Assembly: GCA_011364905.1 (NCBI GenBank)
Contig: RDNZ01000005.1
Span: 32,001-96,000, forward strand
From: Candidatus Thorarchaeota archaeon
GTDB lineage: Archaea; Asgardarchaeota; Thorarchaeia; Thorarchaeales; Thorarchaeaceae
Length of the DNA: 64,000 nucleotides
Direction: 5' to 3'
This document shows, in pieces, positions 37,182 through 45,632 of the stretch. Positions within the stretch are counted from its first letter, which is position 1, and every line of letters begins with the position of its first letter. The notes under the pieces are model-generated. The model was not told the origin of the DNA. It searched no databases and was given only the letters and a program-made list of their open reading frames with translations. Both the position numbers and the translations under genes were made by a program.

Positions 37182-40100
37182 CTAAATGCCGAAGTACTCC
37201 TTTACATCAGACTTGCTGTCCTTTTTTCGTTGCTCAGCTTCCTTCTTCTTTTCCTGAGGGGTCTTGCCACGTTTCCAGGATATATTGTCACCCCGCCTTT
37301 TCTTCCAGTATAGCCAACCACCTACTATAATGGCAGCGCCGCCTCCTATAATTCCAATCAATAGGATTGGGAAGGGTCTGATGAGCATGAACTGTTCTAG
37401 TGTGAGAGTGAGGGTGTCATATCCTGCCTTGGAAGCAACTATGTGGATATCGAAGTCACCAATATTGTTCCTCGTCCAAGCACCATTTAGGGTAACAGTA
37501 TAGTACCCACCGCCGGCATCAGAAGTGCTAGTTTGACTGGAGTTAATCAGCACAGACAGACTTGCTGAGTCTATTCCATTGCCGACAAGGTCAGTCAGCC
37601 TAAAGCGAATTGTAACCTGATCTCCAGCCCAAATTATCCTTTGACTGAGCGAGATTTCATTAAGCGTTATTGATGGGTATTCAGCCCATGTGATTGCATT
37701 CTCAATGGTGTGGACCTGTTCTACTCCGGTTGGTGATGTTGTCGTGAGTGCTAGTTTTCCTGAACCGATAACGCCAGCGACAACGATAGGATTTAGTCCG
37801 TCAGTCGCAATAACAGAGAAATTAGCCCACACTGACGAAAAGTGGCCAGCAAAATCAACGGTTGAATTCAGCATGTTCGGAGAACTCAACAACGGATGAG
37901 ATGAGTCTTCGATTGTAATAGATGTTCCAGATCCTACTGACTGATAGATAATCGGCCACGGAAGCCAGTCAATTGGTTCCGTCACCCCTAATATTACTAA
38001 GACGCCACCATTTTCTATGAAAGACTTCAGTTGATTGCTGGTTGATGCAAGATTCGAACCAAGGTTGGACAATGTACCAGGTTCAATAAGTACTACCTTC
38101 CTCAGCGGGAGAAGCTGAACGAACTCAGTGTAGTTCGTGGATTCATAGTATCTAAAGTCAGCGCCTAAAGAGGACAATGAAGAGGGGAGATAGGATGAAG
38201 CACCAAGGGCTGCAATCCAACGAATGCCATGTCCTGGAACATGGGAGCCGAATCCTGTTTCTAGAGGATTAACAGAATCAATGTAGGGAGATGAAGTGGG
38301 TTCAAAGAGTCTAATGGATGGATCACCAAAGAGAACTTGTTGATTGGCATAGTCACGAGGGTCTCGCCCAAGAGGGTCTGAGTAGTCTATTGAGGTAAGA
38401 GCAAGACCAGAAGAGAGCGCCTCTGCCACCGTTGATCCCCCACAGAGAGACTCCGTGAGAAGAACTGAAAGCATCCCTGCGGGTTGGAAATAGACTGTCC
38501 GTGGCGATGCAGTAACTGCAACAGCTCCATGCTCCATGAGCATGAGGGGCATTTGTGTCCCGCCCAGGAGACACGCAGTCAGAATCACGATTGGACTGCC
38601 AATGTTGCCTACTGCAGCATCCAAGTCATGGGAAGATTTGATGACATGATTAACAACATCTGGAAAAGCTACCGGATTTACCAGTAGATTCGCATCTGAG
38701 GGACTTTCTCTAACCTCTAAGCTGTCCTCAAATCCATAAGGTGCGTCAACACTTCTCATTGAGAAATAACCCACGCCATTTGGGCGGTCAGGCGGGTCTC
38801 GTGGTAGCTCTGTCAAGGTTCCGTGTGTACTGAGTGACCAGAAAGCCACCTGACTGCCAAGGGTTTCAAAGACCTCGTTTTGTCCAACATGACTTTCAAT
38901 TGAGAAGCCGAGGTCCTCAAGAGGGCCTGTTGTGTCTTCAATCTGAAACAGAACGTGAGAGCCATAATTGTTGTCGACAAAAGTTGCACCATCAGTATAT
39001 GCATACATACTCACCAGAGACGTGTCTGCATGGTCAGCCTCCAGAAACAGGAACCGATGGAGAAGGCCTCTGTTAATGAGAATGGAAGCCATAGTTGGCG
39101 ATGCCGCGGGAATTCTTCCCGGGTTGAAATGGCTCTGAAGTGACCTATCGAAACTCAACGGAACCAACGAATCTGGAGAAACAACAACAACAGGTTGAGA
39201 GGACGAGGAATTGTAAGCGCCTCTGGATGTGAGGAATGTTTCAAACTGCGCTTCGGAAGCCATCATTGAGAACTTATTTGGAATGCGTTCGTCATACCAC
39301 CCGTTTTCAGCCCTGTTCTCATATTTGTGGATGACATAGATGTTATTTATCTCAGGACCAATTAGGTATGGAGCCCATGTTTCTTCAGCTCGTGTCGTGA
39401 GCACATTTGTGGTGCCGCACAGAGAGAATACAGGGCTACCATGTGCAGCTGCTGAGAATGCTGCAGGAGCGAAGAACTCGCTTCCATTACCCACGGGAAC
39501 AGTGACAACAATATCCTGAGAACCTGAAAGGGATTTAATCAACGAAGTCACATCAGAGTGGTTCTGTATGTTGTAGAGTGCGCCGTGCGTTTCTAGCAGG
39601 GTTGAAAGTCCGGCCCCCTGCTGATTGTATGGATCGACAAGATAGATATCATTCACACCAAGCCGATTGAGTGCCCATTCTGTATCAGTGGGAATCTCGT
39701 CCTCAAGCACGTAGAGGAGAGGACAATTGAGGAGGGAGGCCAGTACTGCTGCGTTAGCCGCAGACTCCATGTATGCTTGGAGGTCTGCGGGTATTCGAGA
39801 TATCTCCCATGAGAGGTTGATGTTGTTTTGTTCCTCACTTGCATCCATCCAAGCGGCAATAATTGTCCAATCACCTGCCATCGGGTATGGTAAGTTTACC
39901 ACCTCATGTCCAGGATTCGACAAGATACTCCCCGCAGGAGCCCACATGACAAGTCGACCATTGGGATCTACAAGAGCCAAGTTAAGGTCGGTGGCCGCAT
40001 TATCCCAGAGAAGAGAAACATTGAACCATTTCGCATTTGTCGGGACATTGACCGTCTGTCTGTACCCCGGATGAGAAATAACCTCATTGACCATGGTCGT

Positions 40101-40985
40101 AGTGGTGTCAGTGTCGCTAGTTATATTCATGGTCCAAGTTCCGTCAACTGTCTTTGGCAACCAGAAATTCAGAGGTACGGGGGTCACAACATAGCCCACC
40201 TGTCGGGAGAAGTAGACCTGATTAAACACTGAGTAATCTACCACTTCTCCATTGGGATCTATTAGTTCATGTGTCAATAATTCATTTCCAGTCCAATTGA
40301 ATCGACCTTCTATCCAACCAGCCCAAGTAGGAGGAGTGAAGGTGATGCTTGAAGGAGCGCCATATGTAACAGTGCCTCCAAACTCTGATACCTCAGATGG
40401 TTGATTCTGAAATGTGTGAGAAGCGCTTCCTGTAATCAATGCAGGAGTGTTGAAATCCTCCTTTAGAAGTGCGACCACTGCTGTCGCACTAGTACTCCAT
40501 CCATTCAAAGCAAGCAAGGATGCAATACTCGTAGCTGAATCACCAGTAATCCGAGGATAAATTTTGGCGCCAGTCTCATGCTGGAGTTGAGTCAGATAGC
40601 TCTCAGAGAAATCTCCAATTGCGACAGCTTGCGTGATCCCATTATTGCGTCCAAGATACCCAGACCAGTCATCCAAGAGCCAATGTTCACTATCTGAACC
40701 ATCGCTATAGATGAGTGGCGATATAAACTGCGTGTCATTGAAGTAAAAAACTGATGTAGGAACTGCAGCCATGTAGGCGAACTCATCAACATATGAGGTT
40801 GGATCTGGTGCGACAAATGCGACCCGCGAAAGAGGAATTTGATTTGCTGCAAGGTCACTCGGAACAAAATCATTCACTTTGGAGTCTAGTCCAGAGTTAA
40901 TGAAAGTGGTTGTTATTGGAGCCATAGCACCCAGCATTAATACCACAAATAGAACAGAGAGTGTTTTGTTCTTGGATTTGACCAT
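37182..40985 (-). CDS. Large membrane-anchored surface protein with PPC-like beta domains and a putative C25 (gingipain-like) peptidase domain
   Basis: Signal peptide; DLNLALVDPNG PPC-like motif; STHG, ILTACLLG, LFGDP; C-terminal TM and charged cytoplasmic tail. Confidence 0.7.
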   Translation of the reverse strand: MVKSKNKTLSVLFVVLMLGAMAPITTTFINSGLDSKVNDFVPSDLAANQIPLSRVAFVAPDPTSYVDEFAYMAAVPTSVFYFNDTQFISPLIYSDGSDSEHWLLDDWSGYLGRNNGITQAVAIGDFSESYLTQLQHETGAKIYPRITGDSATSIASLLALNGWSTSATAVVALLKEDFNTPALITGSASHTFQNQPSEVSEFGGTVTYGAPSSITFTPPTWAGWIEGRFNWTGNELLTHELIDPNGEVVDYSVFNQVYFSRQVGYVVTPVPLNFWLPKTVDGTWTMNITSDTDTTTTMVNEVISHPGYRQTVNVPTNAKWFNVSLLWDNAATDLNLALVDPNGRLVMWAPAGSILSNPGHEVVNLPYPMAGDWTIIAAWMDASEEQNNINLSWEISRIPADLQAYMESAANAAVLASLLNCPLLYVLEDEIPTDTEWALNRLGVNDIYLVDPYNQQGAGLSTLLETHGALYNIQNHSDVTSLIKSLSGSQDIVVTVPVGNGSEFFAPAAFSAAAHGSPVFSLCGTTNVLTTRAEETWAPYLIGPEINNIYVIHKYENRAENGWYDERIPNKFSMMASEAQFETFLTSRGAYNSSSSQPVVVVSPDSLVPLSFDRSLQSHFNPGRIPAASPTMASILINRGLLHRFLFLEADHADTSLVSMYAYTDGATFVDNNYGSHVLFQIEDTTGPLEDLGFSIESHVGQNEVFETLGSQVAFWSLSTHGTLTELPRDPPDRPNGVGYFSMRSVDAPYGFEDSLEVRESPSDANLLVNPVAFPDVVNHVIKSSHDLDAAVGNIGSPIVILTACLLGGTQMPLMLMEHGAVAVTASPRTVYFQPAGMLSVLLTESLCGGSTVAEALSSGLALTSIDYSDPLGRDPRDYANQQVLFGDPSIRLFEPTSSPYIDSVNPLETGFGSHVPGHGIRWIAALGASSYLPSSLSSLGADFRYYESTNYTEFVQLLPLRKVVLIEPGTLSNLGSNLASTSNQLKSFIENGGVLVILGVTEPIDWLPWPIIYQSVGSGTSITIEDSSHPLLSSPNMLNSTVDFAGHFSSVWANFSVIATDGLNPIVVAGVIGSGKLALTTTSPTGVEQVHTIENAITWAEYPSITLNEISLSQRIIWAGDQVTIRFRLTDLVGNGIDSASLSVLINSSQTSTSDAGGGYYTVTLNGAWTRNNIGDFDIHIVASKAGYDTLTLTLEQFMLIRPFPILLIGIIGGGAAIIVGGWLYWKKRRGDNISWKRGKTPQEKKKEAEQRKKDSKSDVKEYFGI

Positions 40986-41083
40986 ACGGGACGCACTCCG
41001 GTAGAATTCAACAAGACGAAGAATTCTATGTAAATAGAGTTTTCCTGTTGGGAACACAGATTCTAACTTAACCCGCGAGACCT

Positions 41084-42072: not shown

Positions 42073-42774
42073 CTAGTGAGGCATGAGTAGTACCGGATTC
42101 TCAAGAAGTGGCCTGACACTATCCTTAACGATAAACTGCTCGTCACCTACTTGGACCTCCAAGAGCTTACGGAGTTCAAATCTGCGAAGATAGCCGACGG
42201 CTTGATCTCTTTCTAGGTTTAAGTCCTTCATCATTTTGCTAAGACCCTTCTTATCGCCGCTGAATTCAGCAAATTTACTGAAGACCGAGCTCCATTGCAT
42301 CATTACAAGATACAAGAGTGTTCGAAGCATACTATCCACATTTTCTCCAGTCTTAGCTGACACAGGAAAAACTGGAAGACCTGCAAGGAAACGAAGGTTC
42401 TTTCGCAGTTGATCAATTGGTCTGGATTCTGAGAGGTCCTGTTTGTTCGCAGCCACCACACAAGGGACTCCTGGGAGGAAAAACGCAATCTCCCGGAAGA
42501 ATAGCTTTGCCCTAGCATCTGACTCTGGATCAACTGAGTCTACCACAAAGATAATGCCGTCTGCGCCTGCGCTTAGAATCTTTCGCATTGTTCGAAACCG
42601 TAACAGCCCGGGAGTACCGAACATGAAGACATTCAAGCCATCTACATTAGCTAGACCATGGTCCATCGCAATTGTAGTACCCCTGCGTTCCACATTGATG
42701 CAGGCACCATTGGTGATGTGATGAATCATCAGGCTTTTTCCAGCTTCATATGGACCTGTCACGACTATCTTCAT
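42073..42774 (-). CDS. Small GTPase (CvnD/GPN/MglA-related) with a C-terminal wHTH-like extension
   Basis: GPYEAGKS, TTIAMDHG, FGTPG, NKQD, SAK. Confidence 0.88.
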   Translation of the reverse strand: MKIVVTGPYEAGKSLMIHHITNGACINVERRGTTIAMDHGLANVDGLNVFMFGTPGLLRFRTMRKILSAGADGIIFVVDSVDPESDARAKLFFREIAFFLPGVPCVVAANKQDLSESRPIDQLRKNLRFLAGLPVFPVSAKTGENVDSMLRTLLYLVMMQWSSVFSKFAEFSGDKKGLSKMMKDLNLERDQAVGYLRRFELRKLLEVQVGDEQFIVKDSVRPLLENPVLLMPH

Positions 42775-42939
42775 TCGACCACCAAACTCTGAATTCGAAT
42801 CACTGTGTTTCCAATATTCTGATGCTCATTATAAGGTTTGTAGTGCTATTATCGTTAATGCTTCTTCAGGCGCCACCTATAAAGAATGCATTTCTAAGGC
42901 ACCCAGATTGCACAATTTGGAAGAATTGGTTTGTGAGGA

Positions 42940-43018
42940 GAGACCGGCCGCTCGCGACGGCAATCCTCAAACACGGGCTCCAACGGATTTACCGATGTTC
43001 TCATGGGAAATCGGTCTC
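42940..43018 (-). promoter_or_regulatory. Eukaryote-like (type II) SECIS element overlapping the selD stop codon
   Basis: Minus strand A-UGAG-AACAUCGGU-AAA-UCC-GUU-GGA-GCCCGUGUU-UGAG; outer helix GAGACCG/CGGUCUC. Confidence 0.85.
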
Positions 43019-44035
43019 AATGAACTGAACCTCTTGTGCAAGTCTTGCACAAGGTGATCCTTTAGCTTCCACAACTTTGCCAATAGTCCAGCAGGGCAGA
43101 TTCTTCTTTGCTAGGAAATTTCGAAACTCATCTGCCTTACTTGAATCCAAGAACACAAGCATTCCACCTGCAGTTTCAGACCCAAATCCAGACGAGAGTT
43201 TATGTCCAAAGAACTCTGCAAGTCGGAGGGTTCCCCGAATTACAGGGATTTGATCAATGACAACATCAACTCCGCTGAGAAAACTGACATTTCCAGCATG
43301 TCCAAGTAGGCCAAAACCTGTTACATCAGTTGCAGCATGGACTCCAACTTCTTGCATTGCTTGTGCAACTTCAAGATTGCTGAATGTCATTAGTCGAACT
43401 GCATTATCCTGCATATTCTTCAGGTCTGCTTCATCGAACTTGGACAAGAGGACATCGCGTTTCTCATCCTTGAGGTCTCTATAGGATCTCATTGCTGGTT
43501 GGATACCCAATGGTTTTGTTAGAAGAACTACATCACCTGCTTTTGCACCATGTGAATATACAATATCACGAGGATGTGCAGTACCCAGAGCAATCCCTCC
43601 GAAGACCGGAACAGGATTTTTGATTGTCTGACCACCAGCGAGTTTTGCATCATGTCTTTCCATGAAATTCTTCATGCCCGTGAGAACACCAACAACAATC
43701 TCCTCGGGTAAATCCTTGGGATAAGCAAGAAATGCTTGAAGTGATAGGAGCTTGGTAGCACCCATCGCAAAGACATCATTGGTAGCATTGCAAGCGACAA
43801 TCTCCCCTTGTATCTGAGGGTCATCATGTATAGGTGTGAAGATATCCACATTTTCTACAATTGCTACATCATCGTTGATAATGCGGATCACAGCATCGTC
43901 GCCAATTTCCTCAGTTGTGCATTCACCTAGAGGAAGTAGATTAGCTGTTTGTAGAAGGTGAGTGAGATCCTCCTGCTTGACCTTGCAGCTTCAGCCGTGA
44001 GAAGTTACCATTGCAGTCAAACGCACATCAGGCAC
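43001..44035 (-). CDS. selD: Selenophosphate synthetase, selenoprotein form (Sec15 at in-frame UGA 43991-43993)
   Basis: Frame extends upstream to GTG at 44035 after an AGGAGG SD: MPDVRLTAMVTSHG-U-SCK; DDA, NVDIFTP, NDVFAMG, TKPLG, TDVTGFGLLGH, ETAGG. Confidence 0.95.
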
Positions 44036-44186
44036 TTAGTGACTCATCCTCCTGTTCTGTTTTAGGCATTGCAGCCTCGTCCATGTTTAGTGATAGCCTG
44101 TAATAAGATTCTGGGTCAAGTTCACTTCACAAGCCTTATAGCCATGCCAACGAAGCGATGCGTCATTATAGGAGCGTGCATACTAG

Positions 44187-45632
44187 TTGGATATCAAGAA
44201 GGTATCTGAGAACATCCACGAGATTCCCAAGGGTACACAAGCCTGCATGAGAGTACCTGTCAAGATATTCGCTTCTGATAAACTGGTCGAGAAGATGAAA
44301 CAAGATGCTACCTTCACACAAGCAACAAACGCAGCATGTTTGCCAGGTATCTATAAACACAGTATTGTACTGCCTGATGGTCACCAGGGCTATGGATTCC
44401 CTATAGGGGGAGTTGCAGCCACGGATTATGAATCAGGAGTGATTTCACCAGGTGGAGTTGGCTATGATATCAACTGCGGTGTCCGCATTTTGAGGACCAA
44501 TCTTGATGAAAACGATGTACGGCCTAAACTCAAAGATCTCATTGATCAACTCTTCACGAATGTGCCTACTGGAGTTGGAAGACAAGGAAAGATCGACTTA
44601 CGAAACCAAAAAGGTGTAGATGAGGTCTTGGCTGGTGGAGCAGAATGGGCCACAGAGCAAGGTTATGGTTGGCAGGAAGACCTTGACCATCAAGAGGCAA
44701 ATGGAAAACTCAGTATTGCAAATCCGGATGACGTTCCTGTTTCAGCGAAAAACCGCGGACTTAAACAAAGCGGTACACTTGGTTCTGGCAATCATTTTCT
44801 AGAAATTCAAGTCGTGGATGATATCTATGATGAGGCGGCTGCAAAAATCATGGGTATCACTCGAAAGAAGCAAGTAATGGTTATGATTCACAGTGGGTCA
44901 AGGGGTCTTGGGCATCAGGTATGTTCAGAGTTCATAAAGACAATGACTCAAGCGATGAGGAAGTATAACATTGAGGTTCCAGATAGGGAGCTATGTAGCG
45001 CCCCCACCACGTCTCCTGAGGGGCAGGCATATTTGGGAGCAATGAGCGCAGCCGCAAATTACGCATTCGCCAACCGGCAAGTGATGATGCATTGGACAAG
45101 AGAGACTTTTGGTAAGGTTTTGGGCAGTTCTCCTGAAGATTTGGATATGAGTCTAATCTATGATGTAGCCCATAACATGGGTAAGGTGGAGTATCACGAT
45201 ATAGATGGCAAGAAGACCAAGGTAGTGGTTCACAGAAAAGGTGCAACTCGCGCTTTTCCGCCTGGTAATCCTGATGTGCCCTCCAAATACCGTGATGTTG
45301 GACAACCGGTGATAATTCCGGGTACAATGGGGACAGCGTCGTATATACTTATTGGGAATCAAAAAGCAATGGATCTCACCTGGGGATCAACCGCTCACGG
45401 TGCTGGTCGATTCATGAGTCGCTCAAAAGCCAAGAAACGCTTCTTTGGCAAGGAGGTTCAGGAAAAACTAGCCACTGAAGGTATCATTGTAAAGGCGACC
45501 AAGGGAATTGTCATCGCAGAGGAGGCACCAGGCGCATACAAAGATGTGGATGAAGTAGTGAAAGTGTCGGATGCAGTCGGAATTGCCACAAAGGCTGTCA
45601 GATTACGACCCATTGGTGTCATCAAGGGTTGA
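44187..45632 (+). CDS. rtcB: RtcB 3'-phosphate/5'-OH RNA ligase
   Basis: PDGHQGYGFPIG, GVGYDINCG, GTLGSGNHFLE, HSGSRG, HN, HRKGAT, HGAGR, EEAPGAYK. Confidence 0.97.
   Translation: MDIKKVSENIHEIPKGTQACMRVPVKIFASDKLVEKMKQDATFTQATNAACLPGIYKHSIVLPDGHQGYGFPIGGVAATDYESGVISPGGVGYDINCGVRILRTNLDENDVRPKLKDLIDQLFTNVPTGVGRQGKIDLRNQKGVDEVLAGGAEWATEQGYGWQEDLDHQEANGKLSIANPDDVPVSAKNRGLKQSGTLGSGNHFLEIQVVDDIYDEAAAKIMGITRKKQVMVMIHSGSRGLGHQVCSEFIKTMTQAMRKYNIEVPDRELCSAPTTSPEGQAYLGAMSAAANYAFANRQVMMHWTRETFGKVLGSSPEDLDMSLIYDVAHNMGKVEYHDIDGKKTKVVVHRKGATRAFPPGNPDVPSKYRDVGQPVIIPGTMGTASYILIGNQKAMDLTWGSTAHGAGRFMSRSKAKKRFFGKEVQEKLATEGIIVKATKGIVIAEEAPGAYKDVDEVVKVSDAVGIATKAVRLRPIGVIKG

Follow-up and report, generated by a model that had tools for sequence, protein, structure and literature searches.

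On the minus strand of the window (the whole 64,000-nt stretch of DNA that was analysed, from a Candidatus Thorarchaeota archaeon) lies a selD gene, coding for selenide, water dikinase, whose 3′ end runs into a predicted RNA structure that includes the stop codon (Table 1). The catalytic G-U-x-x-K position of SelD is occupied by an in-frame UGA (motif HG-U-SCK), which is kept in 62 other Thorarchaeia genomes. The product matches two SelD equivalogs of NCBIfam above cut-off, NF010705 with 296.5 bits (cut-off 291) and TIGR00476 with 218 bits. There is one selD in the genome (3.08 Mb in 95 contigs, 81% complete), and both tRNA-Sec (anticodon UCA) and SepSecS are present. Since the in-frame UGA is found together with SelD matches, tRNA-Sec and SepSecS, selD is a selenoprotein gene and hence needs a SECIS.

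Downstream of selD, on the same strand, there is a gene for a small GTP-binding protein (42073-42774, 233 aa, TIGR00231 with 55.6 bits), which carries a C-terminal extension of ~80 aa and may be one of the Asgard small GTPases. A 481-aa ORF (44187-45632, plus strand) diverges from selD, with a 150-nt upstream spacer common to both; judged by eye, it presumably resembles an RtcB-type RNA ligase. Further away, a 1291-aa ORF (37182-41057, minus strand), which begins with a signal-like segment and near its C-terminus has a hydrophobic anchor and then a tail rich in Lys/Arg, probably codes for a large surface protein.

Table 1. Features of the selD locus (window coordinates) and the vhuU gene (contig C15) of the same genome.
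Feature	Position	Strand	Basis and remarks
selD (selenide, water dikinase)	43001..44035	minus	translation with TGA=U; 344 aa + stop
selD GTG start	44035-44033	minus	translation
selD Sec codon UGA (codon 15)	43993-43991	minus	in-frame, translation with TGA=U
selD stop codon UGA	43003-43001	minus	final codons CCA-UGA at 43006..43001
Outer helix P1, 5′ arm GAGACCG	43012..43018	minus	MFE fold; pairs with 42940-42946; coding, codons Glu-Thr-Asp
Helix I (K-turn C stem), 5′ arm UCC	43006..43008	minus	pairs with GGA 42964-42966; Phe and Pro codon bases
K-turn bulged strand C-A-U-G-A	43001..43005	minus	L1-L3 = CAU; GA in sheared pairs
Helix II, 5′ arm GAACAUCGGU	42991..43000	minus	MFE fold; covariation
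Unpaired AAA (AAR motif)	42988..42990	minus	starts 11 nt past the A of UGA, directly 5′ of ministem
Ministem UCC/GGA, loop GUU (type II apical stem, 3 bp)	42979..42987	minus	MFE fold, per-ortholog folds
Helix II, 3′ arm GCCCGUGUUU	42969..42978	minus	MFE fold, RNAalifold, covariation
3′ GA of SECIS quartet (K-turn non-bulged strand)	42967..42968	minus	at least 90% conserved
Helix I, 3′ arm GGA	42964..42966	minus	MFE fold, RNAalifold, covariation
Accessory hairpin GCCGU-CGCGA-GCGGC, 5-bp G+C-rich stem	42947..42961	minus	adjoins P1 3′ arm without spacer
Outer helix P1, 3′ arm CGGUCUC	42940..42946	minus	MFE fold, RNAalifold, covariation
vhuU mini-gene, 50 codons	C15:164714-164866	minus	found downstream of NiFe-hydrogenase large-subunit gene

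Structure and conservation of the selD 3′ element

The element spans positions 43018 to 42940 of the minus strand, as seen in an unconstrained MFE fold of 43025..42930. P1 begins 15 nt ahead of the selD stop codon, the coding part of the element amounts to 18 nt, and the 5′ arm of helix II is formed by the 10 nt directly past the stop. An asymmetric loop (5′ strand CAUGA, 3′ strand GA) has the layout of a K-turn with its C stem, 3-nt bulge and tandem G·A/A·G, in which the selD stop codon provides nucleotide L3 plus both sheared purines. Helix II is composed of 9 bp and one C.C mismatch (GAACAU.CGGU with GCC.GUGUUU), and the accessory hairpin is flanked on its 5′ side by GGAUU. A reading made earlier from the sequence alone (the sequence-only reading) had proposed an AUGA core drawn from the terminal CCA-UGA codons of selD, followed by a helix, AAA, a 3-bp mini-stem and a 3′ UGAG; the core lies on the minus strand exactly where that reading had placed it, and the MFE fold reproduces the rest. 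The extra GCCG/CGGC hairpin inside a GAGACCG/CGGUCUC outer helix, also proposed there, appears in the same fold and covaries among orthologs. The folding energy is unremarkable on its own (z = -0.99), so that thermodynamics alone proves nothing and the comparative evidence is decisive.

For this comparison the 87 available genomes of the GTDB class Thorarchaeia, nearly all of one family, were taken as the class set. A selD gene with one in-frame TGA occurs in 63 of the 86 other genomes, and the 3′ ends of 62 of these genes, together with the gene of this genome, constitute the 63 orthologs considered below. In all 63 the stop codon is a UGA located within an [A/G/C]UGA core, and the whole architecture is the same; an absence of the structure from orthologs would have spoken against the sequence-only reading. 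The core is AUGA in 36 orthologs, GUGA in 26 and CUGA in one, its U, G and A being invariant, and the codon before the stop is CCA (33), CCG (26), CUA (2), CCC (1) or CGA (1). The predicted K-turn layout in sequence and secondary structure, UCC / CAU / GA ... GA / GGA, is likewise kept in the 63 orthologs. Past the 3′ GA, which is at least 90% conserved, there follows GGA, in which the first G is invariant and conservation of the second G and the A is likewise at least 90%. The AAA motif is also at least 90% conserved and the ministem has the consensus AAACC...GG, a layout encountered almost everywhere in per-sequence folds; in these folds the run of A starts 10-11 nt past the UGA (9-10 intervening nt) in 48 of the 63 orthologs.

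The helices are supported by compensatory changes. From a plain MAFFT alignment, RNAalifold recovered P1, helix I, the lower part of helix II and the second hairpin, with double changes in 12 of 18 pairs. When the sequences were re-aligned to a covariance model, double changes were seen in 22 of 27 pairs, and the covariation score, 0.053-0.096 for slid partners, reached 0.383, a value attained by none of 500 shuffles; this alignment is fitted to the structure and includes three rows from outside Thorarchaeia and one spurious reverse-strand row, which are noise, not support. In P1, double compensatory changes occur in four of seven pairs though its 5′ arm is coding (variants GAGGCCG/CGGCCUC, GAAACUG/CAGUUUC and GAGACUG/CAGUCUC). 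Helix I is paired in 99.5% of cells, and in one ortholog UCC/GGA is replaced there by a compensatory UUC/GAA that alters the last amino acid. The lower six pairs of helix II covary strongly (16-37 sequences with double changes each); its upper part is less regular, many orthologs having a mismatch or bulge there, and only 71% of all helix II cells are paired in the model-fitted alignment. Double changes were found in all three pairs of the ministem and in all five of the accessory hairpin, where 96% of cells are paired and the loop has the consensus YGCRA, being mostly CGCAA, CGCGA or UGCGA and thus GNRA-like.

The strands of P1 and helix I (43004-43018, minus strand) code for the C-terminal E-T-E/D-F-P of SelD in Thorarchaeia, so the protein tail and the RNA structure constrain each other.

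A covariance model built from the orthologs has its sole match in the 3.08-Mb genome at the selD site (E = 4.7e-26), the next hit having E = 2, and it weakly matches the selD 3′ regions of three other Asgard archaea (E = 5e-4 to 0.045). In a cmscan of 42500-44300 against Rfam with E <= 10, no SECIS family was reported and one chance match to a lncRNA was obtained. This null result agrees with the failure of SECISearch3 on Asgard elements, which was reported in two studies (Mariotti 2016, PMC4989117; Huang 2024, PMC11227280). A hand-written SECIS descriptor, run over the whole genome, gave 183 matches, of which 36 were near ORFs with an upstream in-frame TGA; among the best matches, which were inspected, there was no convincing selenoprotein besides selD. 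The descriptor missed one gene, vhuU, because its AAA begins at loop position 4.

Overlap of SECIS cores with the stop codons of selD and vhuU

How widespread is the arrangement among Asgard archaea? Outside Thorarchaeia, 27 selD genes of nine Asgard families use UAA (18), UAG (4) or UGA (5) as the stop, and the [A/G]UGA core is located 0-24 nt past it, with overlap in none. The specific conservation of UGA as the selD stop, which the sequence-only reading had suggested as a check, therefore holds for the 63 Thorarchaeia orthologs and fails in these 27 genes. Compared with these 27 genes, the overlap of core and stop in selD is specific to Thorarchaeia, which is apparently a new observation.

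Many SelD proteins of the other Asgard archaea are shorter by three residues at the C-terminus and finish with ...IEV or ...LEV, whereas those of Thorarchaeia end with ...IET-EFP. From these sequences the Thorarchaeia frame is apparently three codons longer, passing through P1 and helix I before it ends at the K-turn UGA. Since the frame ends in the K-turn, this UGA is required twice, to form the G·A pairs and to terminate translation, and under such a double constraint conservation in 63 of 63 orthologs needs no extra adaptive explanation. The Thorarchaeia-wide fusion of reading frame and RNA structure fixes the stop codon and the C-terminal Phe-Pro.

Other positions of the structure relative to the frame were also noticed. 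In one family (f17, gene L073) the 5′ arm of P1 is coding and a UAA stop stands immediately ahead of the AUGA core, and in another (f4, genes L070 and L072) the 5′ arm of P1 starts within the UGA stop codon. These arrangements look like steps between a free-standing and an overlapping selD SECIS.

The second gene with the overlap is vhuU, in which Sec is located in CYDC-U-LSCGAH and the terminal codons are GGA-UGA. DPUxxC regex searches did not find it, because the motif is DCULSC here. Past its stop there is a 9-bp stem, a 12-nt loop with AAA and a 3′ GA, that is, a type I SECIS whose AUGA core comprises the stop codon. The gene was recovered in 39 of 40 other Thorarchaeia loci, and all 40 genes, including that of this genome, end alike with A-UGA; the vhuU overlap in Thorarchaeia (this genome and 39 others) is a new addition. 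An enclosing helix is present as well (GUGACC/GGUCGC, and CAGACCG/CGGUCUG in one ortholog), and directly past the 3′ GA of the Thorarchaeia vhuU SECIS there is a hairpin, CACCC-CGCAA-GGGUG. RNAalifold on vhuU instead paired GCGG of the Gly codons with CCGC of this hairpin, a competing fold. The accessory hairpin is the preferred prediction, because ortholog L149 retains it with a wholly different sequence while the alternative is broken.

Two further motifs flank the vhuU SECIS. AAGGAG, formed by Lys-Glu codons and invariant, is located ~20 nt ahead of the stop, and CUCCUU(C), which is near-invariant and resembles the anti-Shine-Dalgarno end of 16S rRNA, lies past the enclosing helix; the two could pair as a further outer helix. 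A pyrimidine/T-rich tract past the vhuU element may be a terminator. Seven FlpD/MvhD genes (Pfam FlpD; MvhD/VhuD) were also detected in the genome, on contigs C15, C7, C30, C6 and C16, several of them fused into ORFs of 700-1160 aa, and none has a Sec codon or a downstream SECIS. The HdrA/MvhD family appears to be of the Cys type in this genome, unlike in Lokiarchaeota.

Function of the element and competing explanations

The AUGA...AAA...GA layout, the covariation, the Sec codon and the fit to the published pattern together identify the element as the putative SECIS for Sec insertion into SelD, belonging to the Asgard "eSECIS-like type II" kind, with a probability of about 0.9. It is proposed that the folded element recruits the Sec-specific elongation factor (EFSec) with Sec-tRNA(Sec), either directly or via a K-turn binder, possibly L7Ae standing in for SBP2, which is reported in the literature to be absent from Asgard archaea. 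The recruited complex would then recode the UGA at codon 15, 990 nt upstream, at pausing ribosomes. When the terminal UGA occupies the A site, all four 5′ strands (those of P1, helix I, K-turn and helix II) would be in or at the mRNA channel. From this geometry the whole junction should be unwound at that moment, so that there would be no SECIS and the codon would be left to the release factor; after termination the element would refold. We infer in this way the SECIS activity, the binding partner and the melting at termination. That a ribosome melts the SECIS and so stops the terminal UGA from being read as Sec was already put forward by the sequence-only reading; it follows from the geometry and repeats the published argument that proximity precludes SECIS action on such UGA stops (Mariotti 2016, PMC4989117). 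The stop overlap naturally illustrates the minimum-distance rule for SECIS action, and this is not new.

In the predicted fold the selD SECIS arm is one branch of a three-way junction, which is closed by P1 and has the YGCRA-loop hairpin as its third branch. For most of the 27 selD 3′ regions from the nine other Asgard families the MFE folds are likewise Y-shaped, with entirely different P1 sequences and a second hairpin whose loop is often UGCAA, UAGCA or AGCA; single-sequence folds were used for these families, as RNAalifold on the mixed-family MAFFT alignment, being misaligned, gave no pairs. Searches in the running text of two studies of Asgard SECIS elements (Mariotti 2016, PMC4989117; Huang 2024, PMC11227280) turned up no description of the enclosing helix, the accessory hairpin or the junction, and the SECIS passages of a 2026 review do not describe the junction either. 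It was stated, moreover, that the regions around the key parts are without highly conserved nucleotides (Huang 2024, PMC11227280). The conserved junction of P1 and YGCRA hairpin is therefore apparently new, and an earlier depiction in figures or supplementary drawings may exist. A tentative further proposal, for which the odds are rather against than in favour, is that Asgard SECIS elements are in general three-way junctions, with the hairpin (GNRA-like YGCRA/AGCA loop) as a functional part of the recoding signal. The hairpin might dock on helix II and so keep the K-turn kinked without SBP2; alternatively, it might be the binding site of an archaeal SECIS-binding factor or of EFSec. If it is functional, it could serve to track down the missing archaeal SECIS-binding factor and to improve the search models for Asgard SECIS elements.

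One may ask if the overlap itself has a role. Terminating ribosomes could unfold the SECIS and thereby make Sec insertion at codon 15 depend on the flow of ribosomes at the 3′ end, or a protein on the K-turn could tune termination at the stop, and in both cases SelD would be autoregulated. This fits the fact that SelD synthesis depends on SelD's own product, and the retention of the overlap, over 16-17 genera, in every selD ortholog and each of the 40 vhuU genes recovered. Such retention is, however, explained by constraint alone, as the G·A pairs and the end of the frame both depend on this UGA; the overlap also occurs in vhuU, a gene outside the Sec pathway; and the 27 selD genes of the other families, most of them with the same junction, have the core past a UAA, UAG or UGA stop. 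The other Asgard classes, being without the overlap, show that it is not required for the putative SECIS function of selD. An adaptive overlap is thus considered rather doubtful, and the coupling to ribosome traffic, which the sequence-only reading had also raised, stays a speculation.

The structure could also be a 3′ element other than a SECIS, either an L7Ae-bound K-turn acting in stability or translational repression or a component of a signal for transcription termination. L7Ae would bind a K-turn of this consensus, no Rfam SECIS was matched, and the vhuU element is followed by its pyrimidine/T-rich tract. Against this, the AUGA...AAA...GA layout and its spacing are typical of SECIS elements, the element is present past both Sec-containing genes found in the genome (selD and vhuU), and the published Asgard SECIS models match exactly such a structure. 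In the 226-nt spacer between selD and the GTPase gene there is neither an alternative conserved structure nor a T-tract past the selD element; an intrinsic-terminator role for this element was rejected. A function of this kind is considered quite improbable, and the assignment as a selD SECIS is preferred. Least probable of all is an occasional decoding of the terminal UGA as Sec to give a C-terminally extended SelD: although UGA is a Sec codon and here stands inside a SECIS-bearing mRNA, the SECIS should be unable to fold while this codon is in the A site, and the next in-frame stop comes 0-76 codons downstream in the 63 orthologs, so that a conserved read-through extension was rejected for want of a common length.

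Comparison with known systems

Stop-overlapping Asgard SECIS elements are already known in kind and, effectively, in instance. The SECIS of Lokiarchaeota SPS (selD) was described as resembling eukaryotic type II, many of the stops being UGA, and in VhuU.1 the AUGA motif was stated to double as the stop codon (Mariotti 2016, PMC4989117). A subsequent Asgard survey described type II as the main form for selD, with frequent stop overlap, and reported GUGA_GA cores in Thorarchaeia selD (Huang 2024, PMC11227280). The guess of the sequence-only reading that the overlap had been noted before was therefore right. Its frame of reference was only in part appropriate, since the SECIS is eukaryote-like as supposed, and the source clade is Thorarchaeota rather than Lokiarchaeia. 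The value added here is modest and consists of the clade assignment, the fixation of the overlap throughout Thorarchaeia, and the conserved junction with its hairpin.

The type II reading itself holds, as is indicated by the published Asgard pattern together with the covariation of 22 of 27 pairs. The element lies at the end of selD, in which a Sec UGA stands in frame; it has a core of [A/G]UGA ... GA, and by hand it fits the type II PatScan pattern of Huang 2024 (PMC11227280), i.e., an upper stem of 6-14 bp, an A-rich bulge of 3-6 nt, a ministem of 2-8 bp and the return strand. With the SPS lokiSECIS and the Asgard eSECIS-like type II elements it shares the gene, the AUGA/GUGA...GA core, a short covarying upper stem, the A-rich bulge and the ministem; it differs in that the Thorarchaeia core overlaps the stop in every ortholog, while in the 27 others it lies past the stop. 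The VhuU.1 lokiSECIS is alike in that the core UGA is the stop codon of the gene, as is also true of Thorarchaeia vhuU. Unlike the selD element it belongs to a different gene and is of type I, with a 9-bp stem, a loop of ~11-12 nt and no ministem.

Eukaryotic type II SECIS elements (e.g., those of SEPHS2 mRNAs; Rfam RF00031) have in common with the selD element the AUGA/GA K-turn quartet, AAR ~10 nt from the core and the ministem. The selD element, in contrast, does not match the Rfam model and is placed inside a three-way junction, and its helix I is composed of 3 bp with a 3-nt bulge, as in a canonical K-turn, where the eukaryotic elements have a long helix I and an internal loop. Moreover, the eukaryotic SECIS is confined to the 3′ UTR and has SBP2 as its binding protein, whereas 18 nt of the selD element are coding and its host lineage reportedly has no SBP2. 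The methanogen-type eaSECIS is also located at the 3′ end of the gene and has a G+C-rich stem, yet it consists of two stems with a GAA_A bulge and three S-S pairs in the upper stem, while the core of the selD element is a K-turn; with no GAA before either stem and no opposing A bulge, a methanogen-type SECIS was rejected. Finally, box C/D and other L7Ae-binding K-turns share the C stem, the 3-nt bulge ending with U and the tandem G·A/A·G, but the selD K-turn differs from them in being situated in a putative mRNA recoding signal.
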